Sequence record: PX423614.1
From: a phage
Length of the DNA stretch: 64,000 nt
Reading direction: 5' to 3' (one strand)
Part shown: positions 15,282-47,758 of the stretch, one piece after another
How positions within the stretch are numbered: position 1 is the first letter of the stretch
Layout of the letters: the number at the start of each line of letters is the position of its first letter
Program-made: the position numbers and the translations under genes
The notes under the pieces: model-generated
Database searches by the model: none
What the model saw: only the letters and a program-made list of their open reading frames with translations
Told to the model about the DNA's origin: nothing

Positions 15282-15494
15282 ATGGAGTTTGGAACAATGA
15301 AAAGACGTTGGGTAGTCCGCGTTCACTGGAGCAGTGGTACAGAATCAATGGGTATCAGAAACACTCGTCAAGAAGCTCGCGCTCATAAGAAGTTCTTATT
15401 AAGCTGCGAAAGTACTATTGACAAGATCACTATCCACAAAGCTCAGGACTTTAAATCAGGTCGTTTCTATATCAGCGGAAAGGTACATTACTAA
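15282..15494 (+). CDS. small basic protein, paralogue family A member 1
   Basis: W-x-V-x-V-x-W...TRQEAR...KITIHK...KVHY shared with three other ORFs. Confidence 0.5.
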   Translation: MEFGTMKRRWVVRVHWSSGTESMGIRNTRQEARAHKKFLLSCESTIDKITIHKAQDFKSGRFYISGKVHY

Positions 15495-15700
15495 TGGCTA
15501 AATTATGGGCAGTTCGTGTTAAATGGGCTAACAAAGATCTTGGTGGTGATTGTCTTAAACTGTTTGACACACGACAAGAAGCTCGTCTTGCTAAGAAAGC
15601 TACAAAAGCTTTAGGTCTCGCTGAAAAAGTAGAGATTCATCGTTGGTTTCAAAATGATAATAACAGTGCAGGATCCTTGACTAGCAAGGTTCATTACTAG
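15494..15700 (+). CDS. small basic protein, paralogue family A member 2
   Basis: Same pattern (WAVRVKW...TRQEAR...KVEIHR...KVHY); start overlaps upstream stop (TAATG). Confidence 0.5.
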   Translation: MAKLWAVRVKWANKDLGGDCLKLFDTRQEARLAKKATKALGLAEKVEIHRWFQNDNNSAGSLTSKVHY

Positions 15701-15770
15701 TTGGTAGTAGATATGATAACTCTCAAATGTATATACAGTATAAGAATATTGTATGAAACAGGAGAGAGTT

Positions 15771-16100
15771 ATGTTAGATTTGAGTAAAGTGGCCCCGCCA
15801 TCTGAAGAGATTAGCAAAGCTAAAGTTATGCAGCAGTTCTATCATCGTGATATGCTTGGTCGTTATATCAAGAATCGTGATGTTGTTGCATGGTCTATTG
15901 GAAATCAAGGTTATCTTCTCAAAGTGTTGCAAGTTACTGGCTCAACAGCCAAGCGAGTCAAAGTCTATGACCCTGAAATGGGGCGTTCTAAATCAGTAGA
16001 CCCTCAGAATTGCATTGTTATCACACAACAGGTCATGGATAACATTGCTCGTAATGTAGCTAATTCAACTAACTTAGAAGGGGATGCACCTAATGCATAA
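15771..16100 (+). CDS. hypothetical protein (109 aa)
   Basis: ATG at 15771 with RBS AGGAGAG; within track ORF 15753..16100. Confidence 0.5.
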   Translation: MLDLSKVAPPSEEISKAKVMQQFYHRDMLGRYIKNRDVVAWSIGNQGYLLKVLQVTGSTAKRVKVYDPEMGRSKSVDPQNCIVITQQVMDNIARNVANSTNLEGDAPNA

Positions 16101-16659
16101 TAATGTCTTCGACTTACCTGAACTAACACGAGTGGGTTCTAGCAACCCATTCTCTACTACTGACTCTTCTATCTCTCGTCTTGAGGGAATGAATAAACTG
16201 ATTAGCGGTAACAGCTTAGAACACATCTTGTGTGGTGTGCAAGCTAACCTTGAACTTCTACACATCAAAGCAAAGAACTACCACTGGAACGTCTCTGGAG
16301 CTGGTTTCCAAGGTGTTCATGGTATGTTCGATGAGTTAGAAGATTATGCTCGTGAGGCAGGCGACCGAATAGCAGAGCGTATGCGCTTTCACTGTGTTAA
16401 AGTGGATGCTACTGCTAGTAACTATTTAGGTCATGCTTGGTTCCGAGAAGGTAACGCTGATCTCGACATGGACGGTATGCTTTCCGACATGTGCATGACT
16501 CTGATGTGTATCATTGAAAAGATGGACGAGTTTGATTCAGACTTGTGCACTTATCCAGTTGACCAGAGTATGCTTCAAGAAATTAATGAAGGTCTTGGCA
16601 AGTTCTGCTACTTCGTCAAGAGCAACATGTCCCACTCCAGTGGTGACGTGTCTTACTAA
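16093..16659 (+). CDS. Dps-like ferritin-fold protein
   Basis: NLELLHIKAKNYHWNVSGAGFQGVHGMFDELEDYAREAGDRIAERM matches the Dps signature H-x-YHWNV-G-x-F-x-x-H...FEE...D-x-x-AERI. Confidence 0.6.
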   Translation: MHNNVFDLPELTRVGSSNPFSTTDSSISRLEGMNKLISGNSLEHILCGVQANLELLHIKAKNYHWNVSGAGFQGVHGMFDELEDYAREAGDRIAERMRFHCVKVDATASNYLGHAWFREGNADLDMDGMLSDMCMTLMCIIEKMDEFDSDLCTYPVDQSMLQEINEGLGKFCYFVKSNMSHSSGDVSY

Positions 16660-16722
16660 TCAAACCTCCGCCCTGTCTCTTTGTTTAAGAGGTGGGGCGA
16701 ACTTCTTTATAAGGATATGAGT

Positions 16723-16902
16723 ATGTTTTCAGCAATCGTATGGTCTGTATGGGCAATTCTTGTTGGTGGTATCGTTTATCTGGCTCAGAAGCAGATGCTT
16801 AAAGAGAATCCGAATGATGCTAAACCTATTAAACATGGCAGCATTGCTCTGGTAATTTTCTCTGTTGTTATTCCTTTCCTTCTCCACCTGTTGACTGCAT
16901 AA
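16723..16902 (+). CDS. small two-TM membrane protein (paralogue B1)
   Basis: ATG 16723 with AAGGA RBS; two hydrophobic segments flanking KENPNDAKPIKHG. Confidence 0.5.
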   Translation: MFSAIVWSVWAILVGGIVYLAQKQMLKENPNDAKPIKHGSIALVIFSVVIPFLLHLLTA

Positions 16903-16911
16903 GGGTTTGAT

Positions 16912-17100
16912 ATGATTTCACTGATTGTGTGGGCCGTGTGGTCGTTAATAGTTGGTACTGTTATATATATATAAAGCTCGAAATTTAGCAATTAAAGAAA
17001 ACCCAGCAGAAGAGGATGTTAAAGCTATCAAGCTAGGTAGTGTTGTTCTGGTACATTTTGCTATAACACTACCTCTTGTTATTATTCTTTGTATGCTATA
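16912..17100 (+). pseudogene. interrupted paralogue of the 16723 membrane protein; reading frame broken at a (TA)6 tract
   Basis: MISLIVWAVWSLIVGTVIYI then TAA inside TATATATATATA (16962-16973); downstream +1-shifted frame encodes KARNLAIKENPAEEDVKAIKLGSVVLVHFAITLPLVIILCML, homologous to the upstream gene. Confidence 0.45.
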
Positions 17101-17291
17101 AGGAATCCAAAGAGTGAAACTAAACCTACCTGAAGAATTACAAGCACATGCCATTATCGTTAGTGGCTGTGTGATGGGTCTTGGTCAGACAAAGAAGATT
17201 GCTCATGACTTAGCAAAAGGTCAGTATAAATCTTTTATTGTTGTTCCTGCTACCCAGCGTCATATCAACCTGTTTATTAACAAGGAATAGA

Positions 17292-17568: not shown

Positions 17569-17784
17569 ATGGAAAAGAAACCTTGGATTACTTTTTGGGT
17601 AGTTAAGTGGTTTAATTTTGATAGCACAATCCCTAGCCTCTCCTCGTACACAACACGGAGAGAGGCTCGCCGCTTTAAGCGAGCTTTAAAAATTGCTAAC
17701 ACTGGTGCTTCTAAGATCACAATCCAGAAAGGGATTGAAACAGAAAGTGGAAGCAATCTGATTTATAAAAAGATTTACTATTAA
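17569..17784 (+). CDS. small basic protein, paralogue family A member 3
   Basis: WVVKW...TRREARRFKRALK...KITIQK...KIYY. Confidence 0.5.
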   Translation: MEKKPWITFWVVKWFNFDSTIPSLSSYTTRREARRFKRALKIANTGASKITIQKGIETESGSNLIYKKIYY

Positions 17785-17799
17785 AGAATAGGTGCTATT

Positions 17800-18012
17800 A
17801 TGACTCAAGGAAAAGATGTGTATTTTTGGGCTGTTGTTTCTGAATATCCAGAGATGGAGTATCCAAGGGTTAACACGTGTGCTACTCGTAAAACTGCACG
17901 ATGCACTAAACGTGCCCTCAAGAAGATGGGTCGTGATTCGAAGATTTCAATCCACCGTGCATATATGACAGCAGCGGGTTTCATTGTAGTAACACCAAAA
18001 GTTTATTATTAA
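17800..18012 (+). CDS. small basic protein, paralogue family A member 4
   Basis: FWAVV...TRKTARCTKRALK...KISIHR...KVYY. Confidence 0.5.
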   Translation: MTQGKDVYFWAVVSEYPEMEYPRVNTCATRKTARCTKRALKKMGRDSKISIHRAYMTAAGFIVVTPKVYY

Positions 18013-20980: not shown

Positions 20981-21232
20981 ATGTCTAAAGTAACTTATAT
21001 CACTGTAACTGATTTCCTCCCTTCTCTGAACACAACTGAGAGCTATACTTTTCCTGTAGAAAATGTTACAAGCTCTGTTGAAATGATTAAGTTTAATCAA
21101 ACAACAGCTCGTACTAACGTGGCTCTTCGTGGTCCTGATGGCAAGTTCATCTCCTTCCGTGATAAGGTTGTTCCTAAGCGTATTGCTAAATCTATTGAAA
21201 ATCTGAAACCTTTCCCTAACTTTGGTGCATAA
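20981..21232 (+). CDS. small protein, paralogue family C member 1
   Basis: RBS AAGG then ATG 20981; C-terminal TTARTNVALRGPDGKFISFRD...NLKPFP shared with next ORF. Confidence 0.5.
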   Translation: MSKVTYITVTDFLPSLNTTESYTFPVENVTSSVEMIKFNQTTARTNVALRGPDGKFISFRDKVVPKRIAKSIENLKPFPNFGA

Positions 21233-21233
21233 T

Positions 21234-21491
21234 ATGAAGATTAGCTTAATCCAAATTCGTGATCATCTCTTTAATGGTGACGCTCAGACTCATGACTACA
21301 AGGTTAATCAAGGACAACACCCTACCAATCACCTGATTGGAGGGATTTCTTTATTACCTAATAAAACAGCACGGACTAATGTAATGATTCGTGGTAAGGA
21401 TGGTAAATTCCTCTCTTATCGTGACCCTGAAATCTGTGCTATTGTTCGTACAGCCATGAACAACCTAAAACCATTCCCGACAGTGGAGTAA
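21234..21491 (+). CDS. small protein, paralogue family C member 2
   Basis: KTARTNVMIRGKDGKFLSYRD...NLKPFP; start overlaps previous stop. Confidence 0.5.
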   Translation: MKISLIQIRDHLFNGDAQTHDYKVNQGQHPTNHLIGGISLLPNKTARTNVMIRGKDGKFLSYRDPEICAIVRTAMNNLKPFPTVE

Positions 21492-21861: not shown

Positions 21862-23556
21862 GTGATGGATAACCCTGATAAGTTACCTTTCATAACGGAG
21901 ATGACAGTCGCTGATATAATCTCAAAACAGGCGAAGCATGGAGTCAACTTCAACAGAAGAAACGCTCGGTGGTTTGTTCACCTTCTCAAAGAGATTATTG
22001 TCAATATTGATAAAGAACTGATTCCTCTCCTCCCCAAAATGCGGGTGGATGGTTCAACTTATTCCAAACCTTTTAAGAAGTCCGGTGCTTTACAGAAGTG
22101 GCCTCAACTCTATTGTGATAGGGTTGGTCTTAAAAGAGAAGATATCGGTGGGGCGTTTACTTGCGTTGAGTATGTAGACTTTGACCCATCAAAAGATGCA
22201 CGTATCAAAGAAGCCTTGATGGATGAAGGTTTTATACCTCCAGAGTGGAATTATTCTAAGAAACCTTGGAATACTTTTGAAATTCGTAAAGCTATGAAGA
22301 AGTATGGTACATACTCTGCATGGTATTCTGCTTGGATTCGAGGTAACGCTAAAGAGAAACAGACAGCAGAGATGATAGATGCTGATATCCGAAGGTTTTT
22401 GGATAAACACTTCCGTTATCATACTGTCAATTATATGAAAGCCTATGTCAGCGGTTTAGGTCTTAACCCTAACAGGAAGAAGCCTGTAACCTTTGATGAA
22501 ATCAAAAAAGTTTTGGCTACATCAAACAAGTGGCCTACAGCCCCTACAAACCTTGAGGAGACTCTTGAAGAGGGGCTTGGGGGTGAGCTAGGGGGTGTAG
22601 GAAGTTTGCTTAAGAGACGCGTTGTAGCGGCTCACAGGCTAGGTTTGATTAGCGGGCTTATCGACAAGGAACGTAAAGATGGTAAGTTGTCCGCCGAAGC
22701 TAATAGCTGCGCTACTCCGACATTTCGTTTTAAACATCGCATTGTTGTTAATATTCCTTCTCGCGGTTTGTTTGGTCACGAGTGCCGCAGTCTTTTTCAA
22801 TCTGACTATTCCTCAGACGATAGTCATAACCATCCTTTCATCATTACCAACCATATCCCTGATGGGTGTTACGTACGAAAGGGTACTAACATTATCTATG
22901 AAATGGGAAAACCGGGCAAGAAAGACAAACCAATAGGTGCTTATAAATTTTATGTACCTGCTGGTCGTGAAGTCTTCTTAGGTTATGATGGCTCTGGTCT
23001 TGAGCTGAGGATGCTCGCTCACTACCTTATCAAAGAGTGTCGTGAGATGCTCGCTGAAGCAGAGCGGGAAAACAACCCAGCTAAGAAACGGGAAGCTGAA
23101 CGCGGTCTAGCTTCTGCTGTTATGTACAGAGATATTCTTTTAGAAGGAGATATTCACTCACATAACCAAAAACTTGCTGGCCTTCCTACTCGTGATAATG
23201 CTAAAACATTTATCTACGCATTCAACTACGGAGCTGGTGACGCTAAGTTAGGAAGCATCGTAGGTGGTGGCTCTGACGAAGGGGCTATCATGAGAGCAAG
23301 ATTCTTAGCAGAGAATCCTTGTATTGCAATCCTTATTGAACGTATGACAGAGAAAGCACAAAGTGGATATATCTACGGTGTGGATGGACGTCGTATTACA
23401 ATGAGAAGAGATGCAACTGGAAAGGTTATGGTCCATAAAGCCTTAAATACGCTCCTACAGAGCGCTGGGGCGATTGTTATGAAGTATGCAATGCTATTCC
23501 TCAATAAATGGATTGAGCGTGATGGTGTTCGTTGTGCGAAGGTTATCGACATGCAT
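21862..23556 (+). CDS. family A DNA polymerase, polymerase domain, exon 1 (ends within motif C)
   Basis: Motif A YDGSGLELR, motif B RDNAKTFIYAFNYGAG; track ORF continues to a stop at 23577, but reading stops being polymerase-like after ...AKVIDMH. Confidence 0.65.
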
Positions 23557-24164
23557 AAACTTTCATTGTGCATGTAAAAGTTGGTGAACTCGGTGAAACC
23601 CTACCATTAAGTTGGGGGCAATACCGAGCTAAGCTATTAGGAGATGATATGGCTAAGAAAACTCTTGTTTTGGAAACAACCGAAACAGGGTGTATCATCC
23701 CTATCTCACACAAACTTAACAAAGATGGTTATTTCAGAAAAGTAATAGATGGCAAATGGGTCATGTATCATAGATATGTTTGGGAAGAATCTTTTGGTTC
23801 TATTCCTGATGGTTATGAAATAAATCACAAATGCAAGAATAGGGCTTGTTCCAATCTTGAGCACTTAGAAATGATTGAAGGTTCAGAACATGCAATAGAA
23901 TCAAACACTGGAAGAAATGGAGATAGACAAGAAGCTGCAAGGCTTTATTGGCTAGAAACAGAATGCTCTGGTGTACATCTTGCAGAGAAGTTTGGTGTGA
24001 GCTTCGGAATCGGTTGTAGATGGATTCGGAAGTGGAAAGTGTAGAGACTATCCTAAGGGAGTAGGGGGTTAACAGGGAAACCCTCGAAGCGCCAACAACA
24101 GCAAATTAGCTATGCTGTTATGATATAGTCCGATACCCGAAGTAATTTGGGAATAACATAAATG
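23557..24164 (+). mobile_element. putative group I intron carrying an HNH homing endonuclease ORF, inserted at polymerase motif C
   Basis: Upstream exon ends with T (cat), insert ends with G, downstream codons GAT GAA restore ...VIDMH|DEGQF (HDE motif C); an HNH ORF lies inside. Confidence 0.5.
23649..24044 (+). CDS. HNH homing endonuclease
   Basis: RBS AGGAG before ATG 23649; YEINHKCKNRACSNLEHLE HNH motif. Confidence 0.65.
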   Translation: MAKKTLVLETTETGCIIPISHKLNKDGYFRKVIDGKWVMYHRYVWEESFGSIPDGYEINHKCKNRACSNLEHLEMIEGSEHAIESNTGRNGDRQEAARLYWLETECSGVHLAEKFGVSFGIGCRWIRKWKV

Positions 24165-24317
24165 GATGAAGGCCAGTTCACTGTACATCGTGATGATGTT
24201 AATATTCTGCGCACTCTCACTGAAGAGTGTGTCCGTAAAGCAGGGGAATACCTCAAGATGGAATGTCCTCTTGCATCAGATTGTAAGATTGGGCTTAACT
24301 GGAATCATACTCACTAA
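24165..24317 (+). CDS. DNA polymerase C-terminal exon (motif C to C-terminus)
   Basis: DEGQFTVHRDD...CPLASDCKIGLNWNHTH resembles the T7 DNA polymerase C-terminus (...LDTEGKMGPNWAICH) as recalled from memory; 51 codons, below the ORF track cutoff. Confidence 0.55.
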   Translation, partial: DEGQFTVHRDDVNILRTLTEECVRKAGEYLKMECPLASDCKIGLNWNHTH

Positions 24318-28159: not shown

Positions 28160-28182
28160 AGCCACCTTCGGGTGGCTTTTTT
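28160..28182 (+). terminator. rho-independent terminator with UUCG tetraloop
   Basis: AGCCACC-TTCG-GGTGGCT followed by TTTTTT. Confidence 0.7.
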
Positions 28183-28195
28183 CGTTGGAGTTAAA

Positions 28196-28543
28196 ATGGA
28201 AAACCTTAAACACACTATAGGTTTTATAGTCTTCATAGCTCTTGTTTTCTTTGGAGGTGTTAGGTTCGAGCAACTTCGAAATGACAGTAAAGCTCTTGAC
28301 CAAGAGAAGAAACAACAAGAGATAGAGATTGAGAGAGCTAAGGCTGCTGATGAAGTGGCTCAGAGAGTTCTGACTGGTTTATCAAACTGGAAGAAGAACA
28401 CGGAAACTATTTACAAAGAGATGCATTATGAAAAAACTAAGCCAGTTTTTTACAATGTGTGTGCTAGCGATGAGTATGTCAGCTTGTTCAACGAGCGACA
28501 ACAGCAGGCAGTTAGTGCCCTTACCAACAAACCTAAAAACTGA
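28196..28543 (+). CDS. putative i-spanin (Rz-like; N-terminal TM plus periplasmic coiled coil)
   Basis: RBS GGAG then ATG 28196; TM segment IGFIVFIALVFFGG; coiled-coil QEKKQQEIEIERAKAADE; overlapped by lipoprotein ORF. Confidence 0.45.
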   Translation: MENLKHTIGFIVFIALVFFGGVRFEQLRNDSKALDQEKKQQEIEIERAKAADEVAQRVLTGLSNWKKNTETIYKEMHYEKTKPVFYNVCASDEYVSLFNERQQQAVSALTNKPKN

Positions 28544-28688
28544 GTGTGATGTAGACCTCCCTTTACTTCAGAGTGGACAGGGAGTAGCACTTGCAACAAC
28601 ACTTGAGTGGTATCAGGATAATTATATAACCTGTGCTGCTAATCACAATGGTTTACTTAAAGCTCTCAAAGAGAGAGGGATACAATGA
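28428..28688 (+). CDS. putative o-spanin (Rz1-like lipoprotein) overlapping the i-spanin 3' end
   Basis: Signal sequence ending in lipobox-like MSAC; Pro-containing mature region; out-of-frame overlap with previous gene. Confidence 0.4.
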   Translation: MKKLSQFFTMCVLAMSMSACSTSDNSRQLVPLPTNLKTECDVDLPLLQSGQGVALATTLEWYQDNYITCAANHNGLLKALKERGIQ

Positions 28689-38275: not shown

Positions 38276-39244
38276 TTAAGAGCTAGCTAAGCCACCGATA
38301 ACACCGCCAGCTAAAGCACCCCAAGGGCCAAAAGCTGAACCAGCAGCAGCACCACTAGCAGCACCACCTAGGAAGCCTCCGCTACCACCAGATGTTTTAG
38401 TAGTTGTGGTTGTCCCTAAAGCTCCATTAAGAACCCCGGCAGCACCTAGTTGATTGTTAATATCCTGCCAACCCCAATTAGCAGCATTCTGAGCATTCTC
38501 ATAAGCATTGTTCAAATCAGACTGCTGTTGTTGCTGCTGTTGCAGTCCTGCATTCCACTGATTCATCATTTGCTGTTGTGATAACTGACCAGCTTGGTTT
38601 CCTAGATTAGCAAGATTGGAGCCAATGTTAGATAAACCACCCAAAGCAGATGCTTGTGTTTGTCTATTACCAGAAAGAATGTTCTGTGCTTGAGTTAGAG
38701 CGGAGTCATAAGCACTATTAGTAATATTGGTTGCTGTGTTCTGCATCTGGTTCAGAGCATCACCTTGAGCAAAAGATTTAGCCATACGTGCACCAGAACC
38801 TTGCTGACCAGCAAACTGCTGAGAAATTTGAGGAAGTGCATTCCTAGCCAAACTCTGTTGGGTTTGTTCATTATTCGCTGCAATAGCTGCTTGCACAGCC
38901 TCATCGTCATAGAGCTGGCCTGCAAGAGCACCAATCTGTTCTCCAGTGATTTGACCAGAGTTTGCAAGGTTGTTGTATCCAGAGTATGCGTTATCTAGAT
39001 ACCCTAAACCAGATTGGGCAGCATCCATGTATTGAGAAGAAAGTGCACCTAATGCACCAGATTGTGATAGATTGTTCAGAGCCTCTTGCTGGTTTTGATT
39101 AAGTCCAACATTTTCTCGATACACATAATCGCCTGAACTAGTGTTATTAACCTGATTGACCAACTGATCAATATAGGATTGAATGTAGTCAGGTCTTGTC
39201 ATTTTAGAAGTAGTCTTGCTACTCCCACCACCAAATAAAGCCAT
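38276..39244 (-). CDS. N/Q/G-rich virion protein, paralogue of 39254..40306
   Basis: Shared N-terminus M(A/S)LFG..., Asn/Gln/Gly-rich, poly-Q run, Gly/Ala-rich C-terminus. Confidence 0.6.
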   Translation of the reverse strand: MALFGGGSSKTTSKMTRPDYIQSYIDQLVNQVNNTSSGDYVYRENVGLNQNQQEALNNLSQSGALGALSSQYMDAAQSGLGYLDNAYSGYNNLANSGQITGEQIGALAGQLYDDEAVQAAIAANNEQTQQSLARNALPQISQQFAGQQGSGARMAKSFAQGDALNQMQNTATNITNSAYDSALTQAQNILSGNRQTQASALGGLSNIGSNLANLGNQAGQLSQQQMMNQWNAGLQQQQQQQSDLNNAYENAQNAANWGWQDINNQLGAAGVLNGALGTTTTTKTSGGSGGFLGGAASGAAAGSAFGPWGALAGGVIGGLASS

Positions 39245-39253
39245 AGCTCCTCC

Positions 39254-40306
39254 TTAATTTGCTCCAAAGGCTCCTAGAACACCACCTAAGATATTACTCC
39301 CTGCGGTAGATAACCAGTTGCTCTGACCGTTCTGTTGAGACAGGTTTGAGCCACCAATCATAGGACCAGCCATCCCAGCTTGACCTCCAGAAGCATTGTA
39401 CGAATTCCAAGCATTAGTAGTTTGCTGGTTAGGGGTAAAAGCACCTAGACGACCAGCAATACCAAGACCAGTAACCCCAGCACCAAGGATTTGTTGTGAA
39501 GCATTAGGGGCAGCACCTCTATTAGTAATAGTGTACCCAGCCATTGGACTTACTGAGTTTAATACATTAAGCTGATTGTTAAGCTGATTCCAACCATACT
39601 GCTGACTGCCAATATCATTCTCCCAATTGTTGTTAGCTTGGAGTTGATCTTGCTGCTGTTGAAGGTTTCCAGCAGTGAGCTGATTCTGTATTGCCTGTTG
39701 ACCAGCTTGCACCCCAGCAGCTCCTAGGTTCAGATTCTGATTTGCTAAACCAGACTGAGCATTGAGCAAACCTTGCTGATAAGAGTTGTTATTCAGAAGA
39801 TTACTAACACCCATATTTTTACCCTGAATAGAGCGAGAGAGGTTAGTATTCGCTGAAGAAAGAGCAGCACCTTGAGCAGCAGCGCGTCTCAGAGAGCCTG
39901 AGTCAGAGCCATTGCCAAGAGATACATTAGCAGCAGCTTTGCCTGTAGACTTAGCTAGTGCAGAGTTATTTAATCCAGAACTAAAGTTATTAACATCTTG
40001 AGCAGAGATACCACCTTTATTGACTAGGTTTTGGTATTTCTGAGCCAACTCATTCATCTGGTCTAGCCCTTGTTGAGTCCGAGGGGTATACATCTGACTG
40101 AGTTGGTTAAGTGTGTTAGAGTTTGCTAAATTAGAAAGAGCTGCCGTTTGGCCTTCATTGAAGCCCGCTATATTGCGACTGATGAACCCTTGGTCATTTT
40201 GATTCATAGCTTGGGCATTGGCTACAATCTGTTTCAGAAGAGCATCAACCTGAGAAGACGGAGCTACCGTAGTCTTAGATTTAGGAGCAGAACCGAAAAG
40301 AGACAT
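39254..40306 (-). CDS. N/Q/G-rich virion protein, paralogue of 38276..39244
   Basis: MSLFGSAPKSKTT... similar composition and N-terminus. Confidence 0.6.
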   Translation of the reverse strand: MSLFGSAPKSKTTVAPSSQVDALLKQIVANAQAMNQNDQGFISRNIAGFNEGQTAALSNLANSNTLNQLSQMYTPRTQQGLDQMNELAQKYQNLVNKGGISAQDVNNFSSGLNNSALAKSTGKAAANVSLGNGSDSGSLRRAAAQGAALSSANTNLSRSIQGKNMGVSNLLNNNSYQQGLLNAQSGLANQNLNLGAAGVQAGQQAIQNQLTAGNLQQQQDQLQANNNWENDIGSQQYGWNQLNNQLNVLNSVSPMAGYTITNRGAAPNASQQILGAGVTGLGIAGRLGAFTPNQQTTNAWNSYNASGGQAGMAGPMIGGSNLSQQNGQSNWLSTAGSNILGGVLGAFGAN

Positions 40307-47017: not shown

Positions 47018-47509
47018 TTAATATTTTCCTGTAGTGTATAGATTTGCTTCTGCAACCCTGCGATTGTGAAGTCCCGGACTCCGCTGCTTTACACCTTTAA
47101 CAGTTATCTTATCCCAACGTAAGAACTCTGAGTAAACATCACCCTTCACATCTCCGTTGATCACTTTCCTAAGTTTTGAAGCTGACAAAGCACCACCACC
47201 AACATTAAAGTTGAAAGAAGTGACAGCATCAAATTCATGAGCTAGCATAGGAACTCTTATGTTTTTCTGAGTAGCACGAACAGAGTCTTGTGTGTCTCTA
47301 TCTAGCAGAGCTAGACAATCCTCTATAGAATACGTTAATCCCTGTCTAACTGGATACCCATTCATATCGCGCGTAGCCCCAACACATATCGTCCAGATAC
47401 CTGCGGAATCTTGGTAAGCACGAGTTCTCATACCTTCATGCTTCATGATGAATTCCATCCCTTCTGGGCTTAAGCTCAGTTGTATCGGTGGCAATGCGAC
47501 ATTATCCAT
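47018..47509 (-). CDS. phage lysozyme (T4 E-type muramidase) candidate endolysin
   Basis: HEGMRTRAYQDSAGIWTICVGAT fits the E-x8-D-x5-T catalytic pattern of T4-type lysozymes. Confidence 0.65.
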   Translation of the reverse strand: MDNVALPPIQLSLSPEGMEFIMKHEGMRTRAYQDSAGIWTICVGATRDMNGYPVRQGLTYSIEDCLALLDRDTQDSVRATQKNIRVPMLAHEFDAVTSFNFNVGGGALSASKLRKVINGDVKGDVYSEFLRWDKITVKGVKQRSPGLHNRRVAEANLYTTGKY

Positions 47510-47539
47510 TTTTCACCTCCCTTTCTAGTTAGCCCTAAG

Positions 47540-47758
47540 TTACTGAAGCATGTTTCTCAGAGCACTAGAATCAGAGTCCGGACAAATAACCACAAGATTA
47601 TTTTGAATTGTACGCTGCTTACATGATGCACTTAACTTCTCAATTGGTGCAGGTTGTGTTACCAGAGGATGCACTGCGTTAACAGGAACAGCCACTGACA
47701 CAGCAAAACCGGTAGCAACACAAGCTAACCCATAACTGATTTGTTTCATCATTTTCAT
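47540..47758 (-). CDS. small secreted protein (72 aa)
   Basis: Signal-peptide-like N-terminus MKMMKQISYGLACVATGFAVSVAVPVNA. Confidence 0.5.
   Translation of the reverse strand: MKMMKQISYGLACVATGFAVSVAVPVNAVHPLVTQPAPIEKLSASCKQRTIQNNLVVICPDSDSSALRNMLQ

Follow-up and report, generated by a model that had tools for sequence, protein, structure and literature searches.

A probable four-nucleotide TA expansion splits the second of two tandem membrane-hairpin genes in a phiEco32-like coliphage

Class II holins are phage proteins with two transmembrane domains, and Imm of phage T4 is a small membrane protein that acts in superinfection exclusion. Closer in sequence to the locus described here is phi32_66 of phiEco32, a member of the phrog_9296 family, whose members are uncharacterised; phiEco32 carries one copy, whereas the clade studied here carries two. 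Two further systems concern the way in which short repeats break or switch genes. In frameshift pseudogenes that arise by slippage at simple sequence repeats (SSRs), a coding dinucleotide repeat gains or loses whole units in a number of bases that is not a multiple of three, a premature stop results, and the broken allele is a singleton against a conserved intact background (PMC3315296). In the contingency genes of Neisseria, Haemophilus and Campylobacter, the ORF of a membrane or surface protein holds a tract in its 5' portion and the frame toggles with the number of units; these tracts are long and polymorphic between and within strains (PMC11868660, PMC5084427). Here, we analysed a pair of tandem membrane-protein genes, the second of which (G2) is interrupted at a (TA)6 tract. 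With SSR-slippage pseudogenes it shares every feature named above and shows no difference in kind; its particulars are that the affected gene is an accessory gene of a lytic phage and that the tract made a two-unit jump from four units. With contingency genes it shares the position of the tract in a membrane-protein ORF and the dependence of the frame on repeat number, but its tract is fixed at four units elsewhere, with one variant. The G2 allele is an ordinary frameshift, possibly an error, in a known phage group, and no new kind of feature.

The window, by which we mean the whole 64,000-nucleotide stretch of record PX423614.1 that was analysed, comes from a phiEco32-like podovirus, a coliphage of the Gordonclarkvirinae. 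The region matches 87-99 phage records, all of which are phiEco32-like podoviruses with Escherichia and Shigella as hosts (Kuravirus, Suseptimavirus). The best local matches were Bas88 and ECBP2, at 98%. As the nearest genomes are ~95-96% identical over 25 kb (the locally best ~96%), the window phage is a distinct member of this group. A sister genome near-identical to the window was not found, the closest being at ~96%.

The first gene of the pair (G1; 16723-16902, + strand) is intact, with ORF and ribosome-binding site (RBS) read directly from the DNA: it begins at ATG 16723, has AAGGA 7 nt upstream, and ends at TAA 16900-16902. Its 59-aa product, MFSAIVWSVWAILVGGIVYLAQKQMLKENPNDAKPIKHGSIALVIFSVVIPFLLHLLTA, belongs to phrog_9296 and is modelled as a two-helix membrane hairpin at a pLDDT of 92, which bears out the original prediction of a protein of ~60 aa with two transmembrane helices. 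At least 24 public contigs encode exactly this protein. G1 lies between a Dps-like gene and a thioredoxin gene and is the positional orthologue of phi32_66, with 52.5% amino acid identity to the phiEco32 protein. Two sequences with a damaged G1 were also encountered. In HC-25922 (L009, about 1657-1663), where the gene is unannotated, a T5 run in G1 has one T too many, and this break may be real or may stem from sequencing. A 673-nt contig of ERZ794978 (L021) at 1.3x coverage carries G1 with a 10-nt deletion in the second helix, which may likewise be genuine or erroneous. As this contig is too unreliable, P0012, a G1-like protein that originates from it and whose C-terminus is aberrant, was discarded.

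G2 starts at ATG 16912, nine bases past G1, and has its own Shine-Dalgarno sequence (AAGGG, 16901-16905). Its opening frame reads MISLIVWAVWSLIVGTVIYI and then meets the stop TAA 16972-16974 within TATATATATATA (16962-16973, + strand), the (TA)6 tract that shifts the frame. The N-terminal remnant (16912-16974, + strand) comprises 20 codons that encode the first transmembrane helix behind an intact RBS, and matches the intact 61-aa protein of relatives over residues 1-19 with 100% identity. The remainder, with a loop containing the KENP motif and the second transmembrane helix, was located by tblastn and in the ORF list in the +1 frame (16973-17101, + strand). It reads KARNLAIKENPAEEDVKAIKLGSVVLVHFAITLPLVIILCML, beginning with YKARNLAIKENP and ending with LCML before TAA 17099-17101. 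When the protein of phage 101114UKE3 (UKE3) was searched against the window with tblastn, residues 18-61 aligned at 16967-17098 in frame 2 with 100% identity. The homologous N-terminus, the TAA inside the TA tract and the +1-frame remainder that had been predicted are therefore all seen in the DNA, and the two genes are tandem paralogues as proposed: G1 and the rejoined G2 are 43% identical in BLASTP (E 6e-16), and both belong to phrog_9296. The similarity is far above chance, and at this level of identity the duplication is old. As TTG 16952, the sole candidate for a restart, has no Shine-Dalgarno sequence, the C-terminal part of G2 is probably untranslated in the window phage. The tract itself occurs once in the 64 kb and in 0 of 100 dinucleotide-preserving shuffles. 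No dinucleotide repeat in the window is longer; the other six have 4 units each.

The same gene is unbroken in related phages. In Bas88 and SU7, G2 is annotated as an intact gene of 186 nt that encodes 61 aa, and alignment of their DNA with the window across G2 showed one 4-nt gap, (TA)4 vs (TA)6, and no other difference. A search with G2 alone returned 45 GenBank records from ~33 distinct phages, with identity down to 90%, and every matched stretch was exactly 4 nt shorter than the query. Direct reading of the tract at 12 loci, among them the divergent NJ01 type and three SRA/metagenome assemblies, gave GGTACTGT(TA)4AAGCTC each time. A flank-anchored pattern scan of IMG/VR and of JGI/ENA metagenomes, which allowed a free gap of 2-24 nt, matched four contigs (two of them new), all with an 8-nt tract. 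At every one of the 16 other loci where it was read, the tract is thus (TA)4. The 61-aa protein was found by tblastn at 100% amino acid identity in 35 records, and ten of the ten homologous clusters in a collection of 5.8 billion proteins have 61 aa. The full-length ORF that the original prediction had suggested looking for in related genomes is therefore present as an intact gene in 45 records, two further contigs and 10 clusters. No (TA)5 or (TA)7 allele was found, either in the 45 records or among the protein clusters and the contigs matched in IMG/VR and the metagenomes, and an exact search for the window's 49-aa C-terminal ORF retrieved it from no public assembly. The two-frame arrangement is absent from the relatives, all of which encode the protein in a single frame.

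The ancestral state of the tract is (TA)4, the window's change is a 4-nt insertion, and its (TA)6 allele is a singleton. The earlier proposal that one extra TA unit would restore the ORF is arithmetically right, as (TA)7 returns the two parts to one frame. However, as all relatives have (TA)4, the window holds two units too many, not one too few.

Next, we considered the age of the break. Apart from the four extra bases, no base of the window's G2 differs from that of Bas88, SU7, KBNP1711, ECBP2 or UKE3, and the adjoining G1 has a dS of 0.13-0.24 relative to Bas88, UKE3, SU7 and KBNP1711. No additional decay has come after the frameshift, and the break is very recent or else an artefact. In the ~33 distinct relatives, G1 and G2 are intact and under purifying selection, with dN/dS of 0.29-0.34 for G2 and about 0.1-0.5 for G1; G2 is the better conserved of the two (88-100% amino acid identity across relatives, vs 49-100% for G1). 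The copies are not distributed evenly. The window's clade has G1, G2 and a third gene (G3), whereas phiEco32 and the UViG locus L007 have G1 without G2, and in E20-1-type phages G3 directly follows G1. As G2 is absent from phiEco32, L007 and E20-1, it is an accessory and dispensable paralogue of G1.

We consider it probable that these observations reflect a real, recent and lineage-specific expansion by slippage, from (TA)4 to (TA)6, that knocked out a dispensable G2. Replication slippage would have expanded the short coding tract in one phage lineage. Ribosomes would still start at the intact RBS and ATG of G2, make a hydrophobic peptide of 20 residues and stop at TAA 16972-16974, and the loop and second helix would no longer be translated. 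The loss would be tolerated because G2 is dispensable, several relatives being without it, and perhaps because G1 is still intact, where we assume that G2 is redundant with G1. The allele would then be a one-off loss of function, either neutral or selected on the host used for isolation or propagation, and not an evolved switch. We infer both that slippage was the mechanism and that the phage itself, not merely its assembly, carries the change. Two points speak against this reading: a jump of two units from a four-unit tract is an uncommon slippage event that may need two steps, and there is no near-identical sister genome (the best is at about 96%) that would place the change on a short branch. 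In annotation, G2 should be treated as a frameshifted pseudogene, or as a sequence that needs re-checking, rather than as two small ORFs. A natural knockout would mean that plaques form on the isolation host without the second phrog_9296 paralogue, and the (TA)6 phage and its (TA)4 relatives would provide a ready-made isogenic contrast for the function of this kuravirus membrane-protein family.

An assembly or polishing artefact is possible, although we regard it as unlikely. The phage would then really have (TA)4 and an intact G2, and the two extra TA units would stem from read errors. This would fit an allele that occurs in no other genome or assembly and a G2 that is otherwise identical to that of intact relatives, as an artefact would look; the extra T in G1 of HC-25922, if it is a sequencing error and not real, would be a case of the same kind. 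However, when the 99 annotated CDSs of UKE3 were translated and searched against the window, yielding ~68 orthologues over ~41 kb, G2 was the only CDS divided over two neighbouring frames with no DNA inserted. Long homopolymers are absent from the window, as are other dinucleotide repeats of more than 4 units, and together with the lack of another adjacent-frame split this means that the assembly does not look generally indel-prone. In addition, assemblies from short reads or polished long reads do not typically err by +4 nt in a dinucleotide tract of 12 bp.

Selection for the expanded tract would be a further variant of a real change. Either loss of G2 would let the phage escape a host defence or exclusion system that senses G2, or the longer tract would be a nascent reversible switch that yields mixed ON/OFF virions of this strictly lytic phage; we consider this improbable. 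Very improbable, too, is a contingency locus, in which the TA tract would be a selected reversible switch for a membrane protein (e.g., in exclusion or lysis timing) and the window would show the OFF state. Such a switch would agree with an indel of exact repeat units in a coding repeat near the 5' third of G2, with a frame that can be restored by +1 or -2 units, and with a repeat whose length is unmatched in the window and absent from shuffles. However, known dinucleotide switches use longer tracts, such as the ~9-11 TA units of the Haemophilus hif promoter. The indel variability of SSRs is 0.006 for dimeric repeats of 9 bp and rises steeply and non-linearly with tract length (PMC3315296). 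By these classes, the window's 12-bp allele is more mutable and would be less stable than the ancestral one, as a switch would have it, but the conserved 8-bp tract is in the low-variability range. Moreover, tract length does not vary among the phages (~33 distinct ones), the protein clusters or the metagenome contigs, and a single OFF allele stands against them. As repeat length does not vary elsewhere, with (TA)4 at the 16 other loci, the slipped-strand on/off switch offered in the original prediction is not supported. If the tract were polymorphic within stocks, this would be a rare case of SSR phase variation in a lytic phage, and nothing here points that way.

The other origin that had been offered, a decaying duplicate, fares slightly worse. 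An old redundant copy that is being lost from the genome would explain why one of two tandem paralogues is missing from part of the subfamily (phiEco32, E20-1), but in all other carriers both copies are intact and under purifying selection, G2 is more conserved than G1, and the window's G2 differs by its 4 nt and has acquired no substitutions, deletions or loss of the RBS. Production of the full-length protein from the (TA)6 allele, whether the ribosome makes a programmed +1 shift at ATA-TAA or transcription slips on the TA tract, is scarcely credible: the stop directly after the repetitive rare-codon stretch ATA TAT ATA TAA superficially resembles +1 shift sites such as that of prfB, but the two-frame arrangement is not conserved and the single frame in all relatives contradicts recoding, there is no upstream stimulator resembling a Shine-Dalgarno sequence, re-pairing of the tRNA from AUA to UAU is unfavourable, and to our knowledge (TA)6 is no slippage motif of RNA polymerase.

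To characterise the protein that the expansion would remove, we examined the family. The phrog_9296 profile matches both proteins end to end, G1 with E 3.3e-32 (residues 1-59 of 59) and the restored G2 with E 2.3e-30 (residues 1-61 onto positions 1-59). AlphaFold2, run on the family alignment, predicts a two-helix hairpin (H2-28/H30-58) with a mean pLDDT of 92, and K27, E28, N29 and P30, which form the KENP turn, are invariant in that alignment. Hydropathy is maximal (2.7-2.8) at both ends of the protein, and all charges lie within the loop. With confidence, then, G1 and G2 are predicted to be two-helix transmembrane hairpins of the inner membrane, and the positive-inside rule suggests that both termini face out (N-out/C-out) and that the basic loop is cytoplasmic. 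Any role of the two proteins would accordingly be expected at the host membrane. Homology searches revealed little beyond the family itself. There was no Pfam family at E<=0.1, no PADLOC (defence) match and, in profile searches, no PDB sequence match below E 0.04; Foldseek against BFVD and PDB retrieved the protein's own family and otherwise, at E>0.8, hairpins of a generic kind (e.g., c subunits of ATP synthase). In these Pfam, PADLOC, PDB and fold searches, G1 and G2 had no profile match to described families of superinfection exclusion or anti-defence. An exhaustive profile search of 1.84 billion representatives recovered the small phrog_9296 family and three long repetitive proteins, which look spurious. 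A function in superinfection exclusion or in the modulation of a host membrane protein is a guess, and we hold it at best as doubtful.

With class II holins and T4 Imm, G1 and G2 have in common a size of ~60 aa and two transmembrane helices, and plausibly also an action in the host inner membrane. Unlike them, they have no charged C-terminal tail: their C-termini lie inside the second hydrophobic helix (G1 ...IPFLLHLLTA, G2 ...LVIILCML), with no charged residues after it. They also differ in that they are not beside an endolysin gene, probably belong to the middle rather than the late operon, show no sequence or profile similarity to these proteins, and belong to a phage that has a holin of its own. 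The holin activity suggested earlier is contradicted by the lysis genes, as orthologues of the annotated UKE3 holin (47546-47758, - strand) and endolysin (47021-47509, - strand) lie ~30 kb away in the late module. In kuraviruses, holin gp12 and endolysin gp13 belong to the late morphogenesis module (PMC9965538). Neither G1 nor G2 had a BLASTP match to the UKE3 holin at E<=10. The distance from the endolysin gene, the missing charged tail and the lack of similarity to the annotated holin together rule out G1 and G2 as the holin. A 'holin' label in E20-1 (ORF63, L008 1982-2257) was also considered and was found to belong to the thioredoxin orthologue. Elsewhere in the window, two overlapping genes at 28172-28543 and 28428-28688 form a spanin pair, an i-spanin-like ORF with an N-terminal transmembrane segment and an o-spanin-like ORF with a lipoprotein signal (…AMSMSAC). 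They are far from the holin and endolysin genes at 47021-47758, so that the lysis genes are dispersed.

The genes around the pair offer further context. G3 (17114-17290, + strand) encodes 58 aa and matches phrog_19504 (E 1.5e-45); it is missing from phiEco32 and found in E20-1. The block of G2 and G3 (16912-17290) has 89-100% DNA identity to relatives, including L002, L003 and L005, whereas its flanks are less conserved, at 72-97% for G1 and 72-98% for the thioredoxin gene; where G2 and G3 are at 89-100%, the G1 and thioredoxin genes of relatives are at 72-91%. Either an unusual constraint on the block or its recent spread by horizontal transfer may account for this, and such a pattern of conservation is typical of phage mosaicism. 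G2 is identical even in phages whose G1 has a dS of up to 0.48. If translation of G3 is coupled to that of G2, the premature stop may abolish this coupling.

A motif search placed AATGTATA, which is the core of tAATGTATAtA, the middle/late promoter motif of phiEco32, at 15726-15733 (+ strand), with orf115, the Dps-like gene, G1-G3 and the thioredoxin gene downstream of it. With five matches in the window vs 2.2 expected, this core is weak evidence when taken alone; the SU7 annotators placed a promoter at the site equivalent to 15726. Both the promoter motif and the designation of CDS 25-68, which include this locus, as middle genes have been described (PMC4281155). G1 and G2 are thus probably expressed in a middle-gene operon. 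A general scan for promoter-like sequences performed at chance level (8 found vs 8.0 expected). In the gap between the Dps-like gene and G1, a GC-rich hairpin with a 13-bp stem and a weak T tail (16669-16699, + strand) resembles a terminator. It is a match to the consensus only, one such site being found vs 1.9 expected in shuffles, and it is 84-98% conserved in relatives; an attenuator or an RNA-processing site upstream of G1-G2-G3 is possible.

Several other observations were made in the window. The gene upstream of this hairpin (16084-16659) encodes a Dps/ferritin-like protein (PF00210) that is labelled 'integrase' in several records (L011 23272-23838 and equivalents). With this label and the 'holin' of E20-1, public annotations at this locus are unreliable. 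Four dispersed paralogues of 65-71 aa surround the locus (15297-15491, 15494-15700, 17569-17784 and 17800-18012); they are 31-37% identical and all end in HY or YY. Most of the fourth copy (17789-17996) had no megablast match in most of the relatives fetched. The orthologue of the DNA polymerase is split, with residues 1-564 at 21865-23556 (frame 1) and residues 565-614 at 24165-24314 (frame 3), by an insertion of ~608 nt (about 23557-24164) that is absent from UKE3. Candidate explanations are an intron, a homing-endonuclease insertion and a split without an intein; several relatives are annotated with 'DNA polymerase (x2)'. Tandem paralogues are found at two more places. Those at 20981-21229 and 21234-21488 encode small proteins (83 and 85 aa) that share 53-55% identity over their C-terminal ~38 residues, and those in the structural module, on the minus strand at 38279-39244 and 39257-40306, encode proteins of ~322 and ~350 aa with ~30% identity.
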